Assembly (NCBI GenBank): GCA_964648275.1
Contig: CAZYOB010000005.1
Coordinates: forward strand, 1-49,741
Direction: 5' to 3'
DNA: 49,741 nt
Source of the DNA: an uncultured Pseudomonadales bacterium
Lineage (GTDB): Bacteria > Patescibacteriota > Microgenomatia > UBA1400 > MFAQ01
In this document: in pieces, positions 6,204 through 49,535 of the stretch
How positions within the stretch are numbered: position 1 is the stretch's first letter
How the letters are laid out: the number at the start of each line of letters is the position of its first letter
Notes under the pieces: generated by a model
What the model was told of the DNA's origin: nothing
Seen by the model: the letters and a program-made list of their open reading frames with translations, nothing else
Database searches by the model: none
Translations under genes and position numbers: made by a program

Positions 6204-8051
6204 GTGCATATGCTTGGAACAGTGTTGGTCGGCACGTTGATTTTGACTGCGATTCTTGGTCTGCCTCAGTTCTTGGTCAAAGGAGGCATTAAATACGCTC
6301 TCGGATGGCTATTGATCGGGGCGATCTTCAACTTCATCTTCCTGTGGATCTATGTATACTTTGCCCTTCCGGCGATGACCGGACCCCTGGGTGGTTATGG
6401 ATTCTTGTGGCTACCAATATTAATCAACGTTTTTGCAGCCGGTGCAATGACCATGTTCAAGAGTGAGGACTACAGATCCGACGAAGATGATTCAAGAAAT
6501 CACGTTGCGGCCTTTTTGAGCATGGGAAGCGCCTTGCTGGTATTGGTCATAATCTGGGTGGTAATATCTTTCTCTTCCTGGAAACAAGATTCAAGAAAGC
6601 TTGCCTTTTCCAATGTTGTGCCTGCAACCCCGGTGACCGAGATCATGGGCGACGGGACCACCAAAGTAAGAGACGCCTCTATTCCCGGGTCAGACGAAAA
6701 GCATTTGCCGATCGTCACCGACGGAAATGCCCTTAACAGGGCAGGAGGGTCTTTGACCGGAACATTGGGTTCTAACTACAGTTGGGGTAAGCAGGTGGTT
6801 CAGTCGATCAATGGACATCTGTACAGAGTCTCTCTAATGGAGTTCAAGGATTTCTGGGCATGGAAAAGGAACCCTACCAAGACCACACCTCAGTTCATCA
6901 TGATCGATGCGGAGAACCCTCTGGTTGAGAGTGCTCCAACCCCATACACCATCAAATATTTTACCGGGGCCTATTTCGGTAATGACGTCTTACGCTACCT
7001 ATATACCCATGGTTACTCAAGCTACCTGTTGGTCGATCCGACGATTGAGGTCTCGGATGACTTAAAAGTATACGAGACTGTGGGTCTGGGAAAGTATGTC
7101 ATGGGGTGGTCGGGTATCGAGATCCAGGCCATGGCCATGGTCGATGTAACGACCGGTGCGGTCGATGTATGTCAGATAAGCAATTGCCCCGCCTGGATCG
7201 ACAGAGTACTGCCAGATGACGCTACGGATACGTATGTTGACTGGTACGGACTCTACAATGATGCAGGCTGGTGGAACCTTGGTAAGGTCAACACTCTGAT
7301 GGGTGCGGACGACAAGGCGGTTCCAATTTACAACGGGGAACATGTAGCCTGGCAATACATCATGACGAGCCGCAACATGAAAGATAATAGCGGTGTTGGT
7401 CTGATCCTGTATGACGCACGAGAGAGAGTGGGCACCTACTACACTTTCAATAGTCCATTCCCTGTCGGCGGTCAGGTACGCTCCACTTTTGAGAACAACA
7501 AAACCCTGAAACAGTCGTCGACTACGGTGGATCAGATGATCTTGGTCAATATCTTCGGTGAAAACACTTGGGTAGCGACGATGGTGACTCCGGCAGCCAA
7601 TGGTACACAATACCAGTACACGGCCTTCGCCCGGGCTAACAAAACGACGGTGTCCGATGATGTGCAGTTTGATAAGGATCCCAAGATCGCACTGCGAAAC
7701 TATGAGATGTGGTTGGCAACTCACAGGGATACAAGTGAAGCCGATCCGACCCAGGAATCCGTGACGGTGATTCTTGAAGGTTACGTCGCCAGTGTCGGAA
7801 CTACTACCGTTCAGGGAAATACATATCATGTCTTTACTATGAATGACATGGATGCAAAGCCAGTGACCTACACTGATGACAATGGGGCAGAACAGACACG
7901 GTACTTTGTCGGACTTTACAGCCCGACGCAGACGATTGAACTGCCGCTAACAGCTTCCGATCATCATGTATTGGTAACTTATTTGGATACCAACCTCTCA
8001 GCGGAGGTACAGATTCAGGCGTTTGAAGATCTGGATGTACCTCCTCAGTAA
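6204..8051 (+). CDS. membrane protein with ~4 N-terminal TM helices and a ~480-aa extracytoplasmic domain, unknown function
   Basis: 615-aa ORF with SD AAGGAG 6 nt before the ATG and a strong terminator downstream. I recognise no catalytic motif. Confidence 0.65.
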   Translation: MHMLGTVLVGTLILTAILGLPQFLVKGGIKYALGWLLIGAIFNFIFLWIYVYFALPAMTGPLGGYGFLWLPILINVFAAGAMTMFKSEDYRSDEDDSRNHVAAFLSMGSALLVLVIIWVVISFSSWKQDSRKLAFSNVVPATPVTEIMGDGTTKVRDASIPGSDEKHLPIVTDGNALNRAGGSLTGTLGSNYSWGKQVVQSINGHLYRVSLMEFKDFWAWKRNPTKTTPQFIMIDAENPLVESAPTPYTIKYFTGAYFGNDVLRYLYTHGYSSYLLVDPTIEVSDDLKVYETVGLGKYVMGWSGIEIQAMAMVDVTTGAVDVCQISNCPAWIDRVLPDDATDTYVDWYGLYNDAGWWNLGKVNTLMGADDKAVPIYNGEHVAWQYIMTSRNMKDNSGVGLILYDARERVGTYYTFNSPFPVGGQVRSTFENNKTLKQSSTTVDQMILVNIFGENTWVATMVTPAANGTQYQYTAFARANKTTVSDDVQFDKDPKIALRNYEMWLATHRDTSEADPTQESVTVILEGYVASVGTTTVQGNTYHVFTMNDMDAKPVTYTDDNGAEQTRYFVGLYSPTQTIELPLTASDHHVLVTYLDTNLSAEVQIQAFEDLDVPPQ

Positions 8052-11470: not shown

Positions 11471-12349
11471 ATGGCAACTTTTGCTACTTCCGTGCCTGTC
11501 GCATACGCTCTTTGGCCTACCTCCACCCAGTATTTAGGGTCAGAAATTCCTTGGGGAGCCGACCCCAACAATTCCCTGCAGAGACTAATGATCACATTGA
11601 AGGATCCATCTCTGGCTTTGGCCTCGACGATGGATAATTCTGTCTTGCGGGCCTGCGCTTCGAATAGCGCCGCTGTGGTCAATAAGTTCCTGAGAGACGA
11701 AAAATTCACGATCCAACTGACCGACGCCGGTTCTTTGAATATGCTGTACTGCGCTGCAGTGATGAAGCTATTGGGAAAATTTTTGGTTCCAGGCACAAGC
11801 GGTTATTACCTGAGCAAAATCGGTAAAAAAGCGTTCCGTCTAGGACGTGACTCAGGGATAAAGCATTATATGTTCAGGCCGCAGATCGGTGAATCTTTCA
11901 GGATAGTGGAAGTGCCGACCATGGCAGGTTTTTCATTATTGGTCGCCAGGCCGACAGGGGTAACCGGTTGGGATATGTTGATCGACTGGTCGCAAATGAC
12001 CTTCTTTATGAAAGAAGTAGAAGGAAACGGCGTGATTCTCCCGAGTGCACAGATCGACGAAGCGAAGGTGGATGTTAAGGCGCTCGTTGGTATGACAGGT
12101 GGAGAATGGATGATACAGGAAGCATTGATGGCCGCCAAGTTCGGGTTGACTCGTAAAGAGGTCAAGTTCGAAGCTGCCTTTGCCTTTTCGGCCAAACGAG
12201 CTGTTGATCCGCGACATGATCCTGAGCCGGATGATTACGTTGCCGATCACGATCTTTACTTCGCTCTGGTCCGTCAAGGACATATATTGCCGATCGCGGT
12301 TGGTCTGATACCTTCAGAAGAGTTGTCGGACGCAAGCGACGTAGAGTAG
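11471..12349 (+). CDS. hypothetical protein; C-terminal two-thirds resemble a serpin core (divergent and short)
   Basis: SD AGGAG. FRIVEVPTMAGFSLLVARP resembles the serpin 'lelpY.g..lsm.iiLP' segment. EVKFEAAFAFSAKR resembles the hinge (EeGteAaAat). YVADHDLYFALVRQGHILPIAVGLI resembles the 'f.adrPFlf.i...g.ilF.G.v' end. At 292 aa it is ~100 aa short at the N-terminus. Confidence 0.4.
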   Translation: MATFATSVPVAYALWPTSTQYLGSEIPWGADPNNSLQRLMITLKDPSLALASTMDNSVLRACASNSAAVVNKFLRDEKFTIQLTDAGSLNMLYCAAVMKLLGKFLVPGTSGYYLSKIGKKAFRLGRDSGIKHYMFRPQIGESFRIVEVPTMAGFSLLVARPTGVTGWDMLIDWSQMTFFMKEVEGNGVILPSAQIDEAKVDVKALVGMTGGEWMIQEALMAAKFGLTRKEVKFEAAFAFSAKRAVDPRHDPEPDDYVADHDLYFALVRQGHILPIAVGLIPSEELSDASDVE

Positions 12350-40706: not shown

Positions 40707-41852
40707 ATGGGAATCAAGGAATTGTTGGGTCTAAACAAAAAGGTTACTGAAAAAGCGGAAGAAAAGAAGGATCAGGCTGCCGAGATAAAAGCTGAGGAGA
40801 AACAAGAGTCCATTACGCCTAAGGTAGTTAAAAAAGCCAAACTGAGGATCGATAGACAGGCACTTAAGAAGTTGGGTTTGGTCGTTGTAGCTTATTCGCA
40901 CGTAGAGAGAGAGTGGTTCCCGACCGAGGAATCATATTATGCCGAGGTGGAGGTTGAGGACAGAGCCAAAGAGGTGGCAGAGCGAGTCAAGGGATTGGGT
41001 GTGAACGTGAAGACCTTGCCCGGAGACCCGTACTTTCTTACCAACCTGTTGGTAGACAAGCCGGACCTGGTGCTTAATTTAGTGGATACACTCAAAGGTA
41101 AGGATAAACTTCAGACTTCGGTGCCCGCGGCTTTGGAGTTGTCCAATATTCCCTACACCGGAGCAGGTATGGAAGGATTGGTCATCGGAAACAACAGAAA
41201 TTTAACGAAGAGGTTGCTTTTGGCTTATGGGATCCCGACCCCGGCCTTCCAGTTCATCCGCAGGGCAAAGACAGCCGTGCAGGAGGACTTGGGACTGCCT
41301 TTAATCGTCAAACTAAATGAAAGTGGTGGAAGTGTAGGAATTGATGATCATGCAGTCAAAGAGACTGTCAAGGATGCCCAAAAGAAGGTAAACAAGATGG
41401 TGAGTACCTACAAGATCCCGGTGATCGTAGAACAGTTCATTGACGGTCCCGAGGTAACGGTGGTAGTGTTCGATGACGGTTCAAAGAAGCACGTATACAT
41501 GGGGCAGAAGATCTTCAGAAAGAAACCGGACGGCAAGCACTATTTCACCAGTTTCGAGTCATATGATGACATCCGTGCATACACTTACAAGCATGTAGAG
41601 GAGCCTCTGGCCAGCAAGATCTCACAATTGGCTATCCGGGCTTTCCGCGGACTTCACCACAAAGACTGGGCTAAGTTCGACGTTAGAGTGCAAGATGACA
41701 CCGGTATCCCGTATTTCACGGATTCCAATCCCAACACCGCCTTCGGTCCCGATGCCGGACTGCCTATGACCGAGGTATTAGCTTTACACGGGATAAGCTT
41801 TGACGAAGTACTGGCAAGTTTGCTATCCAACTACGCCCGGGGACAGAAGTAG
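40707..41852 (+). CDS. D-alanine--D-alanine ligase family ATP-grasp enzyme (divergent, Lys/Glu-rich N-terminal extension)
   Basis: IPYTGAGMEGLVIGNNRNLTKRLLLAYGIPTPAF, PLIVKLNESGGSVGID and IVEQFIDGPEVTVVVF match the ATP-grasp/Ddl C-terminal domain. I did not see the canonical N-terminal HG..GEDG motif. Confidence 0.7.
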   Translation: MGIKELLGLNKKVTEKAEEKKDQAAEIKAEEKQESITPKVVKKAKLRIDRQALKKLGLVVVAYSHVEREWFPTEESYYAEVEVEDRAKEVAERVKGLGVNVKTLPGDPYFLTNLLVDKPDLVLNLVDTLKGKDKLQTSVPAALELSNIPYTGAGMEGLVIGNNRNLTKRLLLAYGIPTPAFQFIRRAKTAVQEDLGLPLIVKLNESGGSVGIDDHAVKETVKDAQKKVNKMVSTYKIPVIVEQFIDGPEVTVVVFDDGSKKHVYMGQKIFRKKPDGKHYFTSFESYDDIRAYTYKHVEEPLASKISQLAIRAFRGLHHKDWAKFDVRVQDDTGIPYFTDSNPNTAFGPDAGLPMTEVLALHGISFDEVLASLLSNYARGQK

Positions 41853-41868
41853 GTAGTAAAATACCTCT

Positions 41869-43053
41869 ATGCGTCGATATTTTTATATCAATGATCGGAA
41901 GTTCGTGGTGCGTTTTTTTGATGAGAACAGCGCTCAGGATCTGTCGGATCTGTCGGACATCATCAGGAGCCCCGGAGCACAAAGGTGGATGGACGAGGTG
42001 GATGATGACAGCGTCAATGGGCTCAGGTCATGGATGATGGAGAAGGGGCAAGGGAATCGCTTCCTTTTTGCCATAGCGGATATTGAGACTAGGGAGGGTG
42101 AAGGTAGAGTTCACGGATTCGTCTATATCTACCCACGTCAGGCGGACAAGGCTTTGGAGATCAGCTACGCCAGGAGACCTGATGGGGTGTCAGGTTTGAC
42201 CGCAGATGGAATTCATTTGGCTTTGGAGATAGTACAGGCATATATTGCCTTGAATCGACCATGGATGAGTGAAAGATTGAAGTTTATGGCCGAGATCGAG
42301 AGAGGGAATCTGCTTTCGATCAGGGTGATCGAGAAGGCAGGTTTTATAAAGGTCACTGATTTTGATCGAAGCAACAATGCCCTCTGGGTGTTGACCATCA
42401 AAGACAGGAAGCTCGAGTACAGACCGAGGAAGGTCGGTAGAGTCCGTCAGGTTACCGGTGCGTATTGCGGACCGGCGGTGGTGCAGATACTGGCGGCCCA
42501 TTTTGGAGTGGCACTGGATCAGGAGGCGATAGTGGATGCGGCCGGGGTAAGAGACAAGATAGAACTCAGGGGGATTTCGGTGGAGCAGATGGCTAAGGCA
42601 GTTGGGGTCTTGATGCCGGACTATACTCTCTGGATCAAGATGGAGTCTTCATTGGACGATATTGAAAAGATGGTCAGGGTCTACAACTACCCTGTGGCCG
42701 TAAATTGGCAAGGGATATTCGAGAAAAATGAATATGCGAACAGATTAACACCGGCACAAATGGAGGCGTATGAAGATGAGGAGGAGTGTAAAGGTGAGGA
42801 GGGGCATTACTCGGTGGTAGTGGATATCGACAAGACGATGAACTATGTGCGGATTATGGATCCTTACGGTCACTATTCAGAGGAGGATCGTTTTATCGCA
42901 CTGGGCGAATTCGAGCAGCGATGGTGGGACGACAGAATGGATTATCCGGAAGACGGCACAAAGCAATACTTTTATGCAAAGCAGTTGATGTTCGCACTTG
43001 TCCCAAGAGGAATTAGTTTGCCGGAAAATATCGGTATGAAAGAGATTATTTGA
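41869..43053 (+). CDS. fusion protein: RimJ/RimL-like GNAT domain + C39-like papain-fold cysteine peptidase domain
   Basis: N-terminal half: RFFDENSAQDL...LEISYARRPDG...AEIERGNLLSIRVIEKAGF. C-terminal half: VRQVTGAYCGPAVVQILAAHFG (Cys) and EEGHYSVVVDID...VRIMDPYG (His/Asp), as in Peptidase_C39-like domains. Confidence 0.6.
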   Translation: MRRYFYINDRKFVVRFFDENSAQDLSDLSDIIRSPGAQRWMDEVDDDSVNGLRSWMMEKGQGNRFLFAIADIETREGEGRVHGFVYIYPRQADKALEISYARRPDGVSGLTADGIHLALEIVQAYIALNRPWMSERLKFMAEIERGNLLSIRVIEKAGFIKVTDFDRSNNALWVLTIKDRKLEYRPRKVGRVRQVTGAYCGPAVVQILAAHFGVALDQEAIVDAAGVRDKIELRGISVEQMAKAVGVLMPDYTLWIKMESSLDDIEKMVRVYNYPVAVNWQGIFEKNEYANRLTPAQMEAYEDEEECKGEEGHYSVVVDIDKTMNYVRIMDPYGHYSEEDRFIALGEFEQRWWDDRMDYPEDGTKQYFYAKQLMFALVPRGISLPENIGMKEII

Positions 43054-43219
43054 GCTTGGAAACTTCCTTGTGCTCGGTGTGGTCTCTGCAGGTACGACAA
43101 TATTTAGAGATAGCAAGCTTCTCGGGTGTGTTGGTTTTATTCCTTTCGGAGATATAGTTGAAATGTCCACATTTGGTGCATTTCAAACCTACGTGTTGTC
43201 TGGGTCCTTTTTTAGCCAT
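43046..43219 (-). CDS. rpmG: 50S ribosomal protein L33
   Basis: Not in the ORF track (57 aa). MAKKGPRQHVGLKCTKCGHFNYISERNKTNTPEKLAISKYCRTCRDHTEHKEVSKLK, with the two CxxC pairs typical of L33. Overlaps the convergent gene's end by 8 nt. Confidence 0.85.
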   Translation of the reverse strand: MAKKGPRQHVGLKCTKCGHFNYISERNKTNTPEKLAISKYCRTCRDHTEHKEVSKLK

Positions 43220-43392
43220 AGCGGTGATATTTTAGCACAAAAGTTGATTTATTAGTGTGGGGTAAAGATTGTGAACAAATATCCGGGAAGAGTTTGAGCT
43301 TGGGCAATTAAAAAAAGAGTGTTTGGGTTCTTACAAATCATTTTATTGGATATTCTATAAAAGTGCGTGCGTGAATTGGGCATAATTCTAAG

Positions 43393-43421
43393 TTGACAAG
43401 ACTTTTAAAACAGTTTACAGT
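43393..43421 (+). promoter_or_regulatory. sigma70-type promoter candidate
   Basis: TTGACA, a 17-nt spacer, then TACAGT. It lies ~30 nt upstream of the ATG at 43453. Confidence 0.35.
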
Positions 43422-43452
43422 TATTTGTAGATACTTGTAAAAATAGTTACAA

Positions 43453-45393
43453 ATGAAAGAAAAAGACTACACAGTCAAAGAGGCGGCCAAGTTCCTGGGT
43501 TATTCCACCAACACCGTTTACGGGTATTTAAAGTCCGGAGAGATCAAATCGGTGAGAGTCGGTAAAGGAAAGATACGAATACCTGCCAGTGAGTTGGAAA
43601 AATTCGAGGGAGTAGCCGAAGAGGGGGCTTCCGAAAAGGAAGCGGTCGTCAGTGAGGTAGTGAAAGGACCATTGGTATTACCGACACCGCGTCCGGGAAG
43701 AAGTCTGGAGGCCTTAAGTGGAGAGACACCTTGGCATATAACTAAACTTTGGCTGGAAGAGAGAGTTGGCTTACCACGATTGTTCGATTGGTTGGTGGCG
43801 CTGGCATCCATAGTGTTGGGACTGTCCATGTTCCTCTACAACAGACAACTGGATGTGTTTGTGGCAGGTAATCTGGCCGAGTGGTTCTTGCCCATCAGAT
43901 TGACTCTTATAATCGCCGGTATCGGATTGATACTGGCCAACATGATCCAGGAGGAATTCTCGATGTATTCTCACTTGAATAATGTTTTCAGGGTGATATT
44001 GGTAATTGTTTATTTCGTATTGGCTTATTTACAGATGAGGAGTGGGGATCTGGATGGGTTATTGATCAATGGATTATTTGCATTGACCATTTTATTGGAG
44101 GCGGTCTTTGGGGTGGTGTCGTCGGCGGCTTACGCCTTTTTTATCGGCGGCTTAATGATCGGAATTGTCCTAGCTTTCAGATATTATCCGGAGACCAGCG
44201 GGCTGTCCTCGATATCTACTGCGATATACAGAGTTATAGATGGATATAGTGTGTTGTTAAGTGGACTGGCGTTGATATTGCTAATCTCCCTGGTCTGGGG
44301 TTATTTGGTAAACAAGAAATTATTTAAGATAATTTTAGGACTATGCGGGTTGCTGTTGGTGGCCTTGTCGATACACTACGCGACCGAGAGTTACTGGGCA
44401 AGATCATTCTTTATTTTAATCGCGGCGATGATTGGAATGTTACTGCCATTTTGGGAAGAGTTTAAACGAAGGACCGATGTCGATAGGACATTGGTATTCA
44501 GAATGTTCGGAGCTATCCTGATGTCATTTTCTTTGGCGATAGTTTTGATCGGGGTGGTCCAGTCGATATTGATGAGGAACGCCAGAGTTAATCTGACAGA
44601 GAAGGTGGAGTACGGGAAGATCATTGTAGACAGGGCGGTTGAGAATTCCCTGTCCGCACTTGACGGTCTATCCGGGAACGAATTATTCAGAGAGGCTTTG
44701 ACAAAAGAAAATGAGGCTGATTTAACAAGTTTTTCCAAAGCTTTATTCAAGAATTACAAAGATTTTGAAAACATTGCGATCGTTAATTTGGAGGGCATGG
44801 TGATCGCCGCGTATCCATTAACTTCTCAGACAGGGGTGAGTTTAAGCAGATACGGATATTTTAGCGACGTGGTCAAGGGAAGTGCGAATTATTTTTCTAA
44901 TACTCCAGAAGCATATCCATATGGGGATGAAAAAACCGTCGTGTTGGGCATCCCGGTCAGACAAGCGGATGGTGTAGTGATCGGTGGAGTTTTCGCTTCT
45001 TACAGCATGGAAGTATTGGGAGACAGAATACAGGAGATAGCTTCCGAGCAGACGGGCCAACATTTTGGATTACTGGATATTGACGGTAGGTGGTTGAGCA
45101 ATACAAATTTCGACCTGGTGGGGACAAAAGTGACCGAAACCGATGTTACTTATTTGTCATGGTTAGGAGGAAAAAATATCAACATGGGTTACAACGGATC
45201 GGGAAGGTATTCCGTAGTGGTAATTTCCAGCCCCAAGAATGTCGATTGGACGGTGACTTTAGCCCAACCGGTATTTTCGGTATTGGATATCAGTAACAGT
45301 GGATTGACGACGGTGATGTTCCTATTGTTCGTTATTGCACTTGTGGTGGCCAGCTCATATGCATTAGTTAGAGAAGAAGAGGAATTGCTTTAA
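43453..45393 (+). CDS. membrane-integrated one-component-like protein: excisionase-type HTH + ~8 TM + extracytoplasmic Cache-like domain + terminal TM
   Basis: N-terminal YTVKEAAKFLGYSTNTVYGYLKSGEIKSVRVGKGKIRIPASELEKF. A hydrophobic block spans residues ~110-370. The Cache-like segment is IAIVNLEGMVIAAYP...YFSDVVKGSANYFSN...VVLGIPVRQADGVVIGGVFASYSM. Confidence 0.6.
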   Translation: MKEKDYTVKEAAKFLGYSTNTVYGYLKSGEIKSVRVGKGKIRIPASELEKFEGVAEEGASEKEAVVSEVVKGPLVLPTPRPGRSLEALSGETPWHITKLWLEERVGLPRLFDWLVALASIVLGLSMFLYNRQLDVFVAGNLAEWFLPIRLTLIIAGIGLILANMIQEEFSMYSHLNNVFRVILVIVYFVLAYLQMRSGDLDGLLINGLFALTILLEAVFGVVSSAAYAFFIGGLMIGIVLAFRYYPETSGLSSISTAIYRVIDGYSVLLSGLALILLISLVWGYLVNKKLFKIILGLCGLLLVALSIHYATESYWARSFFILIAAMIGMLLPFWEEFKRRTDVDRTLVFRMFGAILMSFSLAIVLIGVVQSILMRNARVNLTEKVEYGKIIVDRAVENSLSALDGLSGNELFREALTKENEADLTSFSKALFKNYKDFENIAIVNLEGMVIAAYPLTSQTGVSLSRYGYFSDVVKGSANYFSNTPEAYPYGDEKTVVLGIPVRQADGVVIGGVFASYSMEVLGDRIQEIASEQTGQHFGLLDIDGRWLSNTNFDLVGTKVTETDVTYLSWLGGKNINMGYNGSGRYSVVVISSPKNVDWTVTLAQPVFSVLDISNSGLTTVMFLLFVIALVVASSYALVREEEELL

Positions 45394-45395
45394 AT

Positions 45396-48300
45396 ATGGA
45401 GAGAGTATTAGTAACCGGAAAGAAATATCACCCAAGTGTCAGGCGATTATTAGCCGTGATGATTTTTGGTCTGGGTTTGTTGTTGATGTACTTCGTCGGT
45501 TGGAGATGGATGCCTTTGCTGGATATTCCCGAACAGGGAGTAGAGCGAGTACTGATAACCCAGGTGGATGAGCAAACTATCAGTGAGAGTAATTTTGACA
45601 AGCCGGTACTAATGGGAGTGCTGAGAAGCGATCAGTCTTTTTCTTTTGCGACTATTGAGAACGCCAGGATCCGAGGGGAGAAGTATGAAGGATCGGTAGA
45701 GCTCAACTATCAGAACGGTGACTCAGGACAAGTGGAAGAAGTGAACGGTGTGGTGAACGTTTTCTTGACCAGAAGCGGGAAGCGAGAAGAGGTAAAAGTG
45801 GTGGAGAGGGGCCTCATCGGAGTGGAATTGACCGACACGCAGATATTACCGGTGAAAATAATCAATGGGTCGATAGTCCGGGGTAGGCTGATCGGAGAGT
45901 TTGATTTAATCACCCTGACAGATAATCGAGTGATCAAGGGACGATTCGATACCAGAGGAAAACTGTTGAATGTGAGTATCGAACCGTCTCTCAAAGAGCC
46001 CGACGCAACGTTAACTTTGATATCAAAAGAATTATTGAGACTCTCTTTGTTCTTGCAGGGTGGAACGGATGACAAAAGAGTGCTGGGAGTAAGGACGAGC
46101 GTTCTCGACAAACGAGTCGAGCAGATATCGGAGGCTACACAGCAGGTCTCAATTCCTCTTAATATTGGATTGGTTAGTTCTTTCTATCAAGTAGTGAGAG
46201 ATGCGACCGAGGGCTCTTTCATTATTGCGCAAACAGGAGGACCGGGATTCCCGGCAACAGGTCTACCCTCGACCGCCATAACAGTCGGTCCTATCGGACC
46301 CGCTGGTCCTCAGGGACTTCAAGGACCAAAGGGAGACAAAGGGGATCAGGGAATTGCGGGTGCTCAGGGGCCTGCAGGGGCAGATGGGGTCACGGGACCG
46401 GCTGGTGCAGATGGCACCGGAAGCGGATCATCCTTTGACGCTATTACCACCGGTACAAACACAACAGCAGCCATGACGGTTGGGGCGGGTGCTTCTCTTA
46501 CATATTCGGGTGGAACTGCAACCTCAGGAGTTATTAATGTCAACCAATTACTCGGTGGCACATGGGCTATTCCCGGAACAATTGGATCCACGACTCCAAA
46601 CTCTGGTGCTTTCACAACACTTTCATCTACAGGATTGACGACTTTAGGTGACAACTCTGCGACTGTGACAATCAACTCCTCTGATTGGGATATCAGTGCG
46701 ACAGGAGATATGACTAATATTGGTGGAATCTCGATGGATGGAGCTATTACAGGAGCTACAGGATTTAACGGGTTAGTGATCACTGCCAACACCGGTGTGA
46801 TCACGACTGGTGCTTGGAATGGATCTTTGGTCGGCCTAGCATATGGAGGAACAAACAAGAACATGACTGCGGTCAATGGTGGAGTTGTGTGGACGGATGC
46901 GGATTCGATGGAGGTGACTGTTGCAGGTAGCGCCGGTCAATTCCTAGTCTCGAACGGAGCGGCTGCTCCGTCTTGGACGAGTACTGTGACCGCAACATCC
47001 GTTCCATTCTCGGGAATTACGTCAGGAACCAACACAACTGCGGCCATGGTAGTCGATACCGGAGCCTCTCTGACCTTTGCCAATTCCGGGACCATCAATG
47101 CCTCTACCTTACTCGGTGGCACATGGGCTATTCCCGGAACAATTGGATCCACGACTCCAAACTCTGGTGCTTTCACAACACTTTCATCTACAGGATTGAC
47201 GACGCTGGGAAATAATACGGCCACGGTAGCGATTGATGGTACGAATTTTGATTTGACCAGTGGTGGTCTGGTGACATTGTTTGGAGGTTTGCCAGTGGAT
47301 CTGACAACTCCGGTCGCGACCTCACTCACCATTGACTCAGGAACGACCGGGACGTTAACTTTAGGAGGCGATTCGAGTGCCGAGTCAATCAATTTAGGAA
47401 CCGGAGCAGCGGCGAAGACGGTGGTCTTAGGATCGACCGATACCGCATCTACAACAACAATCCAATCCGGGACCGGGAATGTCAACTTCTTGGTGGGACC
47501 AACGTCATCGAGTGGCAGCGTTCGGATAGGGAACAGTGCCTCATCAACTCCCGATCTGTTGGTACTAGATAATGGAACAGCCGACCCAACCGGAGTGAAT
47601 GGGGGGATGTATTACAACACCTCAACATCCAAGTTCAGATGTTATCAAAATGGCTCGTGGACAAATTGCATTGGAGGTGACACGGTTACTGTTTTAAAGA
47701 CAGCCGATCAGTCGGTGATTAGTAGCACAGTTTTAGTTGACGATACTCAACTACAGTTCAGTATTGGGGCAGGAGAGTCTTGGGTTTTTGATATTAGTTT
47801 AATCGTCTCAAATAGTAGTCTTAATACGCCGGATTGGAAGTCGGCCATGTTGGCACCGGTTGGTTCAACATGTAGTGTCATACTATTCGGACATGAGGGC
47901 AGGGGTGAGAATTTCCCCCAGGCTAACACGACCGACTGCACTACTCCGGGGGAAATGATTAACTTGGCCGTGCAAGACGATGATGGTTTTGGATTTAATG
48001 TCGAGATGCAGGGAATAGTGACTGCCGGAGTTACCGGTGGGACGGTCAAGTTGCAATGGGCTCAGGGGACTTCAATCGCAAACAATCTGACTGTTAAGTC
48101 TGGAAGTATTTTGACTGCTTATAAAGTAGGTGGAGCCGACTTGGCTGAAGCATATGGCACTAGTGATCCAACAATCATAGCAGGAGATGTAGTGGTAGTT
48201 GATAATTTAATGCAGAATGGGGTTAAGAAATCCGCCAGACCTTATGACTCCTCAGTATTGGGAATCGTGTCTACCCAACCGGGAATGGTTTTGGGCGACG

Positions 48301-49535
48301 CTAATATTACGGGAAGTCCGGTTCTGGTGGCACTTTCGGGAAGAGTGCCTGTAAAGGTGAATACCGAGAATGGAGAAATCAAATCAGGGGATTATCTAAC
48401 CACTTCTTCTACCCCGGGAGTAGCTATGAAAGCGATTAAGGCAGGAGCTGTTATCGGTACAGCAATGACTGAATATGATGGAGAGGGAATCGGTACCGTT
48501 GTAGTCTTCGTGAAGAATGGCAATAGTACCGGAGCCAAGTTAGCAGATGTAATGAGCGGATTGGATACAACCAATAGTACGTTTAACTCGGAGGTTTTGG
48601 CTAACTTAATCCAAAATATGGCACAGATCGAGACATCGTCAATAGATATGTCGGAGATAATGACAGATAGGGTAGTGGCAGGGCTGGAAATGATCACTCC
48701 AAAATTGATCACTCAGGATATCTTAGCCACAGGAATGTTCGTGATGCAGGACAGCGAGGGGAACGAGAGCGTTAAGATTACCTCCGACGGCAATGCAATA
48801 TTCATGGGAACAATTAAAGCCGACAAGATAGAGGCGAACGAAATAAAGGGATTTAAGTTGCTCACAGACAGTATTTCAACTTTAACAGATAAGGTCGCGG
48901 GGATCGCTACCGCATCAGCTGAACCAGAGATGGTGCTTGAAAAGGAAAAACCGGTTTCGGTCCAGGTGGCTGACCTGATCAGCGGATTGTTTAGACAGGA
49001 GGTCGAGTTTTTTGGCAAGGTGATATTCCATTCGGATGTGTATTTTGCCGGCAGACCGACGTTTAACAAGGATACGGCAGGATTTGCGATCGTGAAGTCC
49101 GGTGGTAATGAGGTAGAGGTGAAGTTTGAGAAAGAATACAAGGACGAGCCGGTAGTGACGGTTTCCATGAATATAGTAGGGGAGACAGATTTAGGAAATT
49201 TGCCTACCTATGCAATCTTAGATCTGAGTAAGCAAGGATTTAAGATCAGACTATCGCGCAATACATCAATGGATATCAGATTTGCCTGGACGGCGATGGC
49301 AGTGGCGGACTTGAATACGAGTGAGGGAGCCGGGTCGGCATCTGTGCCGACTGCTCAACCTACGGTGGCGATTACTCCCGAACTACAGGTAACACCAAAC
49401 CCAACACCAAGTCCAACACCGGAGTTGAGTCCTTCGCCAACACCTGAGACAACTCCTATATTAGTCGAGCCAATACCCGAGGCGACCCCAACACCTGAAG
49501 TGACACAAGAGGCAACAGCAAGCGGTTCACTGTAA
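45396..49535 (+). CDS. 1379-aa surface fibre protein: N-terminal TM anchor, collagen-like GXY repeats, tandem ~187-aa modules, lectin-like C-terminal beta domain, Thr/Pro tail
   Basis: The ATG lies 2 nt after the upstream stop. There are 15 GXY triplets. Duplicated module LLGGTWAIPGTIGSTTPNSGAFTTLSSTGLTTLG. VEVKFEKEYKDEPVVTVSMN...QGFKIRLSRNTSMDIRFAWTAMAV resembles the H-type lectin pattern. Confidence 0.75.
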   Translation: MERVLVTGKKYHPSVRRLLAVMIFGLGLLLMYFVGWRWMPLLDIPEQGVERVLITQVDEQTISESNFDKPVLMGVLRSDQSFSFATIENARIRGEKYEGSVELNYQNGDSGQVEEVNGVVNVFLTRSGKREEVKVVERGLIGVELTDTQILPVKIINGSIVRGRLIGEFDLITLTDNRVIKGRFDTRGKLLNVSIEPSLKEPDATLTLISKELLRLSLFLQGGTDDKRVLGVRTSVLDKRVEQISEATQQVSIPLNIGLVSSFYQVVRDATEGSFIIAQTGGPGFPATGLPSTAITVGPIGPAGPQGLQGPKGDKGDQGIAGAQGPAGADGVTGPAGADGTGSGSSFDAITTGTNTTAAMTVGAGASLTYSGGTATSGVINVNQLLGGTWAIPGTIGSTTPNSGAFTTLSSTGLTTLGDNSATVTINSSDWDISATGDMTNIGGISMDGAITGATGFNGLVITANTGVITTGAWNGSLVGLAYGGTNKNMTAVNGGVVWTDADSMEVTVAGSAGQFLVSNGAAAPSWTSTVTATSVPFSGITSGTNTTAAMVVDTGASLTFANSGTINASTLLGGTWAIPGTIGSTTPNSGAFTTLSSTGLTTLGNNTATVAIDGTNFDLTSGGLVTLFGGLPVDLTTPVATSLTIDSGTTGTLTLGGDSSAESINLGTGAAAKTVVLGSTDTASTTTIQSGTGNVNFLVGPTSSSGSVRIGNSASSTPDLLVLDNGTADPTGVNGGMYYNTSTSKFRCYQNGSWTNCIGGDTVTVLKTADQSVISSTVLVDDTQLQFSIGAGESWVFDISLIVSNSSLNTPDWKSAMLAPVGSTCSVILFGHEGRGENFPQANTTDCTTPGEMINLAVQDDDGFGFNVEMQGIVTAGVTGGTVKLQWAQGTSIANNLTVKSGSILTAYKVGGADLAEAYGTSDPTIIAGDVVVVDNLMQNGVKKSARPYDSSVLGIVSTQPGMVLGDANITGSPVLVALSGRVPVKVNTENGEIKSGDYLTTSSTPGVAMKAIKAGAVIGTAMTEYDGEGIGTVVVFVKNGNSTGAKLADVMSGLDTTNSTFNSEVLANLIQNMAQIETSSIDMSEIMTDRVVAGLEMITPKLITQDILATGMFVMQDSEGNESVKITSDGNAIFMGTIKADKIEANEIKGFKLLTDSISTLTDKVAGIATASAEPEMVLEKEKPVSVQVADLISGLFRQEVEFFGKVIFHSDVYFAGRPTFNKDTAGFAIVKSGGNEVEVKFEKEYKDEPVVTVSMNIVGETDLGNLPTYAILDLSKQGFKIRLSRNTSMDIRFAWTAMAVADLNTSEGAGSASVPTAQPTVAITPELQVTPNPTPSPTPELSPSPTPETTPILVEPIPEATPTPEVTQEATASGSL
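46287..46421 (+). repeat. collagen-like triple-helix repeat coding region (15 x Gly-X-Y)
   Basis: GPIGPAGPQGLQGPKGDKGDQGIAGAQGPAGADGVTGPAGADGTG. Confidence 0.9.
46548..46642 (+). repeat. 95-nt perfect direct repeat, copy 1 (intragenic)
   Basis: Identical to 47109..47203 (ttactcggtggcacatgggctattcccgg...acaggattgacgac). Confidence 0.9.
47109..47203 (+). repeat. 95-nt perfect direct repeat, copy 2 (intragenic)
   Basis: Identical to 46548..46642. The offset is 561 nt (187 codons, in frame). Confidence 0.9.

Follow-up and report, generated by a model that had tools for sequence, protein, structure and literature searches.

Why does a gene for an excisionase-type DNA-binding domain, carried by a protein that spans the membrane many times, lie two nucleotides upstream of a gene for a giant collagen-like fiber? 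This arrangement is found near the end of a 49,741-nucleotide stretch of DNA (GenBank contig CAZYOB010000005.1, assembly GCA_964648275.1; hereafter, the window, meaning the whole stretch that was analyzed), whose host is a Collierbacteria-like bacterium of the candidate phyla radiation (CPR; Microgenomates) from groundwater. Gene 1 (43453..45393, plus strand; 646 amino acids (aa)) is predicted to encode a transmembrane transcription regulator and gene 2 (45396..49535, plus strand; 1379 aa) a membrane-anchored fiber precursor; both open reading frames (ORFs) are located where a first-pass annotation, made from the sequence without database searches, had placed them. In our judgment, the two genes rather probably constitute a conserved cell-surface module that combines a self-regulating membrane sensor with a self-processing anchored fiber for attachment.

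A life in attachment to other cells is generally assumed for CPR bacteria, or Patescibacteria, and, to our knowledge, the molecules that mediate their attachment and partner sensing are largely unknown beyond the type IV pili of Saccharibacteria. The gene pair described here offers a concrete candidate for such a role that is widespread in Microgenomates (at least about 190 clusters of sensor proteins at 50% identity) and consists of testable parts, namely, a defined promoter with a candidate operator, a sensor domain, and a fiber whose self-processing and binding can be addressed.

A membrane regulator and its fiber partner

Three functional elements are joined in the gene 1 product. The N-terminus is a cytoplasmic winged helix-turn-helix (HTH) domain of the excisionase type (aa 6-51; 43468..43605, plus strand, as are all features below unless stated otherwise), which is recognized both as HTH_17 in Pfam (48.6 bits, cut-off 27) and as TIGR01764 'excise' in NCBIfam (41.9 bits, cut-off 28.8). 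A family profile that includes this domain matches the Xis protein of mycobacteriophage Pukovnik (4j2n; E 3.8e-4), and the HTH is the most conserved segment in the family, with a near-invariant GYS.N..Y signature. The second element is a membrane domain of nine helices (aa 110-369; 43780..44559) that was delineated by hydropathy and by the helices of an AlphaFold2 (AF2) model and shows no Pfam match even at E<=10. In this domain, residues D112, W113, P332 and W334 are invariant, as are the LFDW and PFWE motifs, which lie on the predicted cytoplasmic face. The third element is an extracytoplasmic dCache domain (aa ~391-610; 44623..45282), identified by Pfam, profile and Foldseek searches. Pfam dCache_1 (PF02743) is detected at aa 391-556 with 47.8 bits (gathering cut-off 45) and is found in all 30 family members recovered; the profile of 29 family members matches the sensor domain of Bacillus KinD (E 6.5e-12); and the top Foldseek matches are all solved dCache ligand-binding domains, among them those of PctA, Mlp37, Tlp3, DctB and KinD (probability 1.0, target TM-score <=0.82). 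A last transmembrane (TM) helix (aa 621-639; 45313..45369) is followed by a short acidic cytoplasmic tail.

The AF2 model, which was built on the cluster representative P0121 (2 residues different from the window protein) and has a mean pLDDT (the AF2 per-residue confidence) of 80, begins with a small winged helix at the N-terminus and continues through a disordered linker into nine membrane helices (aa 110-370), the double-Cache domain and the final membrane helix, which both the model and hydropathy place at aa ~615-640. The sensor domain consists of two PAS-like units mounted on a long N-terminal helix, with TM helices on both sides, and the ninth membrane helix runs on into this long stalk helix. 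Hydropathy and the model thus agree on nine helices before the Cache domain and one after it, ten in total, so that the count of about eight given in the first-pass annotation has to be corrected; its description of the protein as a membrane-tethered one-component regulator with an excisionase-type head and a Cache-like domain is borne out by the combination of HTH_17, TM helices and dCache in one polypeptide. The odd number of helices that precede the Cache domain fits a topology with the HTH inside and the Cache domain outside. Under the published definition, a DNA-binding domain together with at least one TM region, the gene 1 product is, judging from its predicted domains, a transmembrane transcription regulator. 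A full HMMER scan with the HTH and TM part as the query yielded, at E<=1e-10, 189 clusters at 50% identity, nearly all of them 600-690 aa long and matched end to end, and the sensor architecture accordingly defines a coherent family of fair size.

The association between the two genes is equally consistent. In the window, a gap of 2 nt separates the stop codon of gene 1 from the start of gene 2, and the final codons of gene 1 (GAAGAAGAGGAA) supply a Shine-Dalgarno-like GAGGA sequence 12 nt 5' of the second ATG; the translational coupling of the two genes that had been proposed in the first-pass annotation is supported. A terminator scan (9 hits in total versus 5.3 +/- 2.5 in shuffled sequences) found none at the junction of the two genes; terminator-like hairpins were found inside gene 1 (one, weak, at 44288-44300) and inside the fiber gene (four).

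The same pair was recovered from both directions. All four loci with close fiber homologs have an HTH-Cache gene immediately upstream. Scanning with a closer subset of the sensor alignment, one genome per species, we found a large ORF on the same strand 3' of the sensor gene in 20 of 20 loci, and the pair was present in both of the two remote family members that were checked (25-29% sensor identity), so that the pairing observed from the sensor or from close relatives comes to 26 of 26 loci, down to about 25% sensor identity. The gaps between sensor and fiber genes are mostly -4 to +18 nt, and 19 of the 20 partner ORFs from the scan start with an N-terminal TM helix; an exception is locus L020, in which the called fiber start lies 337 nt downstream and is possibly misassigned. 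The reverse scan of metagenomes, with a closer subset of the alignment of the N-terminal domain of the fiber as the query, yielded 13 loci, with a sensor gene directly upstream in all 12 for which upstream DNA is available. The co-conservation of the two genes, on which the first-pass annotation had staked its interpretation, held in every locus examined (26/26 loci from the sensor side and 12/12 from the fiber side). The short partner ORF of 152 aa in one locus (L017:11972-12430) is explained by a masked stretch of the stored sequence (the translation runs into XX) and is not truly truncated.

The partner genes have in common only two parts. One is a conserved juxtamembrane 'base' domain (aa ~50-285; 45543..46250), which is without relatives in Pfam or among PDB sequences and is 28-72% identical across the loci found with the sensor, even where the sensors themselves are only 23-25% identical; the other is the collagen stalk. 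The distal modules differ by lineage, and the C-terminal chaperone and lectin-like block discussed below is restricted to Collierbacteria-type fibers. This distribution, with base domain and collagen alone shared and the distal modules swapped, suggests, at the level of sequence conservation, a functional link of the sensor protein with the base domain and an interchangeable distal end. A constant base with lineage-swapped distal ends is the pattern expected of a recognition device under diversifying pressure.

That the base domain and the collagen stalk are the only fiber parts that co-vary with the sensor throughout the family would also fit a different role for gene 1, namely, that its product is mainly a structural or assembly platform on which the base domain docks, and perhaps a tether that keeps the locus membrane-bound while the very long fiber is transcribed, translated and inserted in a coupled manner, rather than a ligand switch. 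The high conservation of the nine-helix domain is compatible with such a function, and so is the fact that other CPR fibers carry MerR/HTH_17 or integrase SAM-like domains fused in front of their TM anchor, as a result of which the cytoplasmic head seems to be part of the fiber apparatus. A precedent exists in the transertion at a membrane-bound regulator that has been proposed for the Vibrio type III secretion system 2 (PMC9977878). However, the whole family retains a complete and normally folded dCache domain, an argument in favor of ligand sensing, and we consider it unlikely that the platform role is the principal one; the two roles are not mutually exclusive.

The upstream region as a candidate operator

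A candidate binding site for the HTH had been anticipated within 43220..43452. This region contains conserved TTGTAR repeats and a palindrome that is unique in the window. The sole strong promoter-like site upstream of the sensor gene is of the sigma-70 type (43393..43421; 10 of 12 consensus matches in the scan) and consists of TTGACA (43393-43398), a 17-nt spacer and TACAGT (43416-43421); when the upstream regions of 15 orthologs are aligned, TTGACA, TA.A.T and the spacing between them are invariant. The promoter is followed by operator-like repeats (43425..43452), TTGTAG (43425-43430), TTGTAA (43435-43440) and the inverted TTACAA (43447-43452), the core bases of which are invariant in the same alignment. 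The last two repeats form the palindrome TTGTAA-N6-TTACAA (43435-43452), which abuts the start codon, and is present in one copy in the 49.7 kb of the window (0.01 expected). Twelve related loci contain a match to it, which in 11 of them is located just 5' of the sensor gene. The one exception, at L030:1096, lies inside an MreB-like ORF and was rejected as an operator, being taken as a chance match. Across a broader set of loci, TTGT[AG]A occurs within 80 nt upstream in 18 of 21, compared to 0.03-0.06 per background window, and the distant loci contain four to six tandem copies of ACTTGTAA with a period of ~10-11 bp, embedded in flanking DNA that cannot be aligned.

Excisionase-type proteins are known to bind direct repeats that are in phase with the turns of the DNA helix. 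The simplest reading of the observed conservation, we infer, is that the sensor HTH binds the TTGTAR repeats and thereby autoregulates the operon. Two caveats apply: the repeats are located 3' of the -10 box, a repressor-like position, so that the regulation might be of either sign, and a factor other than the sensor HTH could bind them.

In Gottesmanbacteria-type loci, two additional copies of the motif in inverse orientation (TTTTACAAGT) are located past the stop codon of the sensor gene and ahead of the part of the fiber gene that encodes the TM helix (L026:6121-6149, L027:11038-11054, L028:12030-12046, L031 ~11950-12000 and L048 ~6405-6445). These copies read 'FYKFL' in the fiber ORFs as called, and the presence of motif copies inside called ORFs implies that the first ~50 codons there may be non-coding regulatory DNA. 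The resulting configuration, with motif copies that flank the sensor gene in inverse orientation, raises the question whether the ACTTGTAA/TTACAAGT repeats, instead of being an operator of the HTH, serve a different regulator or mark the inverted ends of a small mobile or recombining element that encloses the sensor gene; a weak similarity of the HTH to that of the IS607 transposase (19 bits) points in the same direction. We consider this quite improbable because no recombinase domain is present, the position of the motif is fixed relative to the invariant -35 and -10 boxes in 15 loci, no further copies occur elsewhere in the window, and the motif persists amid unalignable flanks while the HTH is the most conserved segment of the protein.

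Under the autoregulation model, the membrane-seated regulator would hold its HTH on the conserved TTGTAR/ACTTGTAA repeats of its own operon, and the dCache domain would respond to a small ligand or, alternatively, to the condition of the fiber's base domain, so that the operon would be regulated from the membrane. A more elaborate variant can be envisaged, in which the pair is a contact-sensing device: the base domain would dock on the dCache and nine-helix protein, and fiber assembly, mechanical load or the cleaved lectin-bearing fragment (see below) would switch the HTH. We deem this a speculative possibility with a low likelihood but, if true, it would amount to a direct wire from an adhesive fiber to transcription that might be general in CPR bacteria.

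An RNA element in the leader was considered and rejected: the sequence 5' of the sensor gene has no match to any Rfam family, and its hairpin is no more stable than those of shuffled sequences (z 0.11). The gene for ribosomal protein L33 (43046-43219, minus strand) is divergent from the operon, which implies two divergent promoters within the 233-nt intergenic region; the plus-strand ORF at 43070..43255 is the shadow of the L33 gene.

Architecture and predicted processing of the fiber

The fiber protein begins with a basic cytoplasmic stub of 17 aa and a TM anchor (aa 18-36; 45447..45503), the sole TM helix detected in it by hydropathy. Beyond the base domain, 15 uninterrupted GXY triplets (aa 298-342; 46287..46421) form the collagen triple-helix stalk, which scores 27.9 bits with Pfam Collagen (cut-off 27.2), and the gene 2 product is, by sequence, a bacterial collagen-like protein as defined by uninterrupted GXY repeats and the Pfam domain. 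The length of this stretch in relatives ranges from 3 to 159 triplets. Two tandem Thr/Gly/Ser-rich modules of ~187 aa follow (aa 341-526 and 532-708; 46416..47519). They share IGSTTPNSGAFTTL (at aa 396 and aa 583) and 88 of 188 aligned residues (47%), and their self-alignment score of 354 exceeds that of shuffled sequences (90 +/- 10) by ~26 standard deviations; they belong to no Pfam family. A beta-rich domain (aa 719-914; 47550..48137) that forms a block conserved in relatives and has no Pfam or PDB sequence matches completes the N-terminal two-thirds of the protein. The anchor, the 15 triplets and the tandem modules had all been noticed in the first-pass annotation, and each is confirmed. 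More generally, searches of Pfam, NCBIfam, PHROGs and PDB sequences returned nothing for the nine-helix domain of the sensor or for the base domain, the tandem module, the domain preceding the predicted cleavage site and the helical linker of the fiber.

The C-terminal region proved more informative at the level of structure. An AF2 model of the last 500 aa, computed from an alignment of 14 sequences, contains two confidently modeled domains, at aa 914-1044 and 1224-1302. The first of these (aa 915-1044; 48138..48527) is a barrel with pLDDT 80-90 whose best PDB matches in Foldseek are the C-terminal fragment of the pre-neck appendage protein gp12 of phage phi29 and premature gp12 (3gqh/3suc; E 1.4e-4). 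Among predicted viral structures (BFVD), barrels of 'preneck appendage protein' are matched down to E 7e-12, with 27-35% identity. The segment had initially been described as SH3/appendage-like; its fold is instead that of the gp12 C-terminal autochaperone. In an hhalign comparison, A914-D915-L-A-E918 is aligned with gp12 S691-D692-F-A-E695, where D692 and E695, the counterparts of D915 and E918, are presumably the catalytic residues at the cleavage site of MEROPS family G2. D915, A917 and E918 are invariant across the 14 homologs. Mature gp12 stops at residue 691 (PMC6542822), and its C-terminal domain is removed after folding (PMC3357383). On the strength of the structural model, aa 915-1044 is assigned as an intramolecular chaperone of the peptidase G2 type, and the invariance of D915, A917 and E918, together with their alignment on the gp12 site, leads us to predict that the protein probably cleaves itself at A914|D915.

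The most serious competitor of this prediction is a fiber that is not processed at all, with the G2-like barrel acting as a trimerization knob and the lectin-like domain as the distal tip, as originally pictured in the first-pass annotation; we regard this version as less probable than cleavage, albeit far from negligible. Several observations count in its favor and thus weaken the case for cleavage. The same barrel fold is present in non-cleaving phage cement and decoration proteins and in the phi29 head-fiber base gp8.5; several relatives contain a second, internal copy of the DxAE-bearing chaperone domain, which means that either some copies do not cleave or the fragments remain together; and, unlike in gp12, the chaperone is followed by ~335 conserved residues that end in a trimer-compatible lectin fold, one that also matches the C-terminal part of the receptor-binding domain of the cyanophage Pam1 tailspike. 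Moreover, hhalign aligns the segment with gp12 over a short stretch of 76 columns (probability 39%, E 3e-4); Pfam Peptidase_G2 (PF11962) gives no hit at E<=1 in the window protein; and the best homolog in this respect, P0006, reaches 24.8 bits against a cut-off of 25, on its internal copy. Speaking against an unprocessed fiber, D915, A917 and E918 are invariant in the 14 homologs and aligned on the gp12 cleavage site, DxAE is retained in the internal copies too, and the domain is terminal in other collagen-like proteins (such as P0023, P0028-31 and P0038), as would be expected of a removable chaperone. Two DxAE/G2-like copies, one internal and one near the C-terminus, are seen in several longer relatives, namely, the downstream ORFs of L019, L020 and L024 as well as P0007 and P0018; a Peptidase_G2 match at E 8e-4 was obtained for one of the 14 C-terminal blocks.

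The chaperone is followed by a helix-rich linker (aa 1045-1223; 48528..49064; pLDDT <50 when modeled as a monomer) with the conserved motif SEI.TDR.VAG.EIITP, and then by the second confidently modeled domain, a beta-sandwich resembling H-type lectins (aa ~1224-1302; 49065..49301; pLDDT 70-80). Foldseek matches this domain to the coral lectin SLL-2, the agglutinins of Helix pomatia (HPA) and H. aspersa, and discoidin II (probability 1.0, E 5e-3 to 5e-2), with target TM-scores of 0.54-0.61 for the first three and 0.28 for discoidin II, where the alignment is partial and the chain is 256 aa long. H-type lectins also account for 5 of the 7 best matches in the comparison of the profile with PDB sequences, at E about 0.5-1. 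Pfam H_lectin (PF09458) remains below its cut-off (13.5-15.2 bits versus 24), with weak sub-threshold matches in 9 of the 14 homologs (best E 2.6e-4), and in a low-confidence profile alignment HPA R63 is opposite a proline, and H84 and Y89 fall in a gap or a variable stretch. The modeled structure thus supports an H-type lectin fold, and membership in the Pfam family is not supported. The H-type lectin pattern seen in the first pass is accordingly upheld as a fold only, given the Pfam scores, and the snail sugar-binding residues are not visibly kept in the one alignment available; likewise, the proposed lectin-like tip does have a lectin-like fold, but the domain is C-terminal to the predicted cut, so it may not be the tip of the mature fiber. 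Among the families for which matches had been foreseen, then, HTH_17, dCache_1 and Collagen exceed their Pfam cut-offs, whereas H_lectin and Peptidase_G2 are below the cut-off or absent.

The protein ends in the Thr/Pro-rich tail already recognized in the first pass (49326..49532; P 23% and T 19% over aa 1311-1379), which terminates in SGSL. The tails across the fiber family end alike, in SGSL, SGAL(E), SVL or SGSI, and these shared endings could represent a recognition signal for processing or sorting.

Taken in sequence, the steps that we infer for the fiber would be as follows. The protein would be exported via its N-terminal anchor and held there as a type II membrane-anchored precursor; the C-terminal gp12-type chaperone would nucleate the association of three chains into a trimer in which the collagen stalk is followed by the tandem modules and the beta-rich domain; and the chaperone would then cut itself off at A914|D915. 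Once cleaved, the fiber would have the beta-rich domain (aa 719-914) as its distal end, and the 465-aa C-terminal piece, with the chaperone, the helical linker, the lectin-like domain and the Thr/Pro tail, would be released or retained non-covalently. By analogy, the fiber is likely to attach to a partner cell or surface or to recognize it, and the adhesion to a partner glycan suggested in the first pass may be part of this role. From an evolutionary standpoint, phage tail-fiber blocks (collagen stalk, G2/S74 chaperones and lectin-like heads) would have been recruited into cellular, membrane-anchored fibers.

Genomic surroundings and relation to known systems

An excisionase-type HTH next to a protein whose collagen stretch, G2 chaperone and lectin-like parts are typical of phage tail fibers might at first sight suggest a prophage remnant, that is, an excisionase gene beside a tail-fiber gene. 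The genomic surroundings point to a cellular chromosome instead: the neighbors of the pair in the window are housekeeping genes, including those for NusG, ribosomal proteins L1 and L33, an RF-1-domain protein, a Ddl-like ATP-grasp enzyme and TatA, and no phage genes are among them. The pair is present on chromosomal contigs of up to ~1.1 Mb across Collierbacteria, Gottesmanbacteria and many metagenome-assembled genomes; the HTH is fused to ten TM helices and a dCache domain; the fiber is anchored in the membrane at its N-terminus and contains a base domain that is not of phage type; and matches to PHROGs are limited to the collagen stretch. We therefore consider a prophage origin of the pair extremely improbable and, given the chromosomal housekeeping context, essentially refuted.

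The identical fiber protein is present on six groundwater-metagenome contigs, a search for transcript evidence returned the sequence from DNA metagenomes only, and the records of related loci are titled Candidatus Collierbacteria, Gottesmanbacteria or Microgenomates group. Several loci of CPR type (L012, L015, L018, L020, L023, L025-L027 and L030) come from records titled 'uncultured Pseudomonadales' or 'Gammaproteobacteria', titles that look wrong. Just upstream of the pair in the window (40707-43053) are a gene for the Ddl-like ATP-grasp enzyme and a gene for a fusion of a GNAT domain with a papain-like (Peptidase_C39-like) domain; Ddl-like or C39-like genes are also found near the pair in loci L006 and L008. 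A protein of ~720 aa and Tat components recur beside the pair in varying orientation (L001:14169-16507; L007:2344-5880): the L007 protein contains CarboxypepD_reg and Redoxin domains and is accompanied by TatA and TatC, and the L001 protein has no Pfam match and is accompanied by TatA only. The GC skew is positive in all 2-kb bins of the window (0.04 to 0.36), and most of the long ORFs are on the plus strand.

Transmembrane transcription regulators are widespread and employ over a hundred types of DNA-binding domains (PMC10269533); the survey text read does not mention HTH_17, Cache or Patescibacteria. Similarly to ToxR, CadC, TcpP and VtrA, the gene 1 product combines a cytoplasmic DNA-binding domain, one or more membrane spans and an extracytoplasmic sensor in one polypeptide, and the proteins of this class exert their control from the membrane, often over surface or virulence structures. 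It differs from them in having an excisionase/MerR-like HTH_17 head rather than an OmpR-type winged helix, ten TM helices including the conserved nine-helix domain, a dCache sensor, and an obligatory single partner in the form of the fiber gene. In Sulfolobus, the archaellum and the type IV pili are controlled by ArnR and ArnR1, one-component regulators that are bound to the membrane (PMC6396743). They resemble the present system in that a membrane-tethered HTH regulator has a surface-filament gene as its (here, putative) target; in contrast, they are archaeal, consist of an unrelated set of domains and act on type IV filaments, not on a protein related to collagen and tail fibers.

For the fiber, the closest structural counterpart is the phi29 pre-neck appendage gp12 (MEROPS G2; 3gqh, 3suc), with which it shares the C-terminal barrel, the D-x-A-E motif and the presumed nucleation of a trimer. 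Unlike gp12, it is a cellular, membrane-anchored protein without a virion or a beta-helix enzyme body, cleavage is predicted only, and conserved sequence continues beyond the chaperone. The GXY stalk that holds a globular domain off the cell surface is reminiscent of Streptococcus Scl1/Scl2 and Bacillus BclA, whereas the N-terminal TM anchor, in place of an LPXTG or exosporium anchor, the phage-fiber-like distal parts and the coupling to a regulator gene set the fiber apart from these proteins. Its end is the Thr/Pro tail ...ASGSL and not an LPXTG motif followed by a hydrophobic segment, as judged by inspection rather than by a dedicated LPXTG search, and the NCBIfam Scl models match the collagen stretch only (22.5 versus 325 bits). 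With the H-type lectins, such as Helix pomatia agglutinin, discoidin II and coral SLL-2, the C-terminal domain has in common a six-stranded beta-sandwich and a similar size; it departs from them in its sub-threshold Pfam score, in the HPA residues that bind GalNAc, Arg63, His84 and Tyr89, which are not visibly conserved in the only available alignment, and in its location past the predicted cut.

A further parallel is offered by MyRF, a membrane-bound transcription factor of eukaryotes whose autocleavage domain is an intramolecular chaperone of the phage type (PMC8326128). MyRF and the present pair each unite a DNA-binding domain, a membrane anchor and a tailspike-type self-cleaving (here, as predicted) trimerization domain in one system. 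The DNA-binding part of MyRF is set free by cleavage; in the present pair, the chaperone is external and resides on a separate protein (or, in fusions of the P0039 type, far beyond the TM segment), so that cleavage cannot release the HTH. These fusions are giant CPR fibers (P0039, P0017, P0024, P0034, P0035 and L045:673-10466) in which domains of DNA-binding type, two MerR/HTH_17 domains in some and integrase SAM-like domains in others, precede the TM anchor, and Peptidase_S74 or G2 chaperones are located much further along the chain; L045 contains two of these genes side by side. From these domain architectures, a DNA-binding head linked to an external fiber appears to be a recurring theme in CPR bacteria.

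A search of the open-access literature for such a module, with the terms CPR, collagen, Cache, HTH_17 and tail fiber, returned no description of it, and it is plausible that the pair is an attachment device that has so far gone undescribed in the literature searched. The principles that it draws on, membrane-bound regulators, collagen stalks and phage-type fibers, are already known; what sets the pair apart is the set of domains that are brought together and the obligatory partnership with the fiber.

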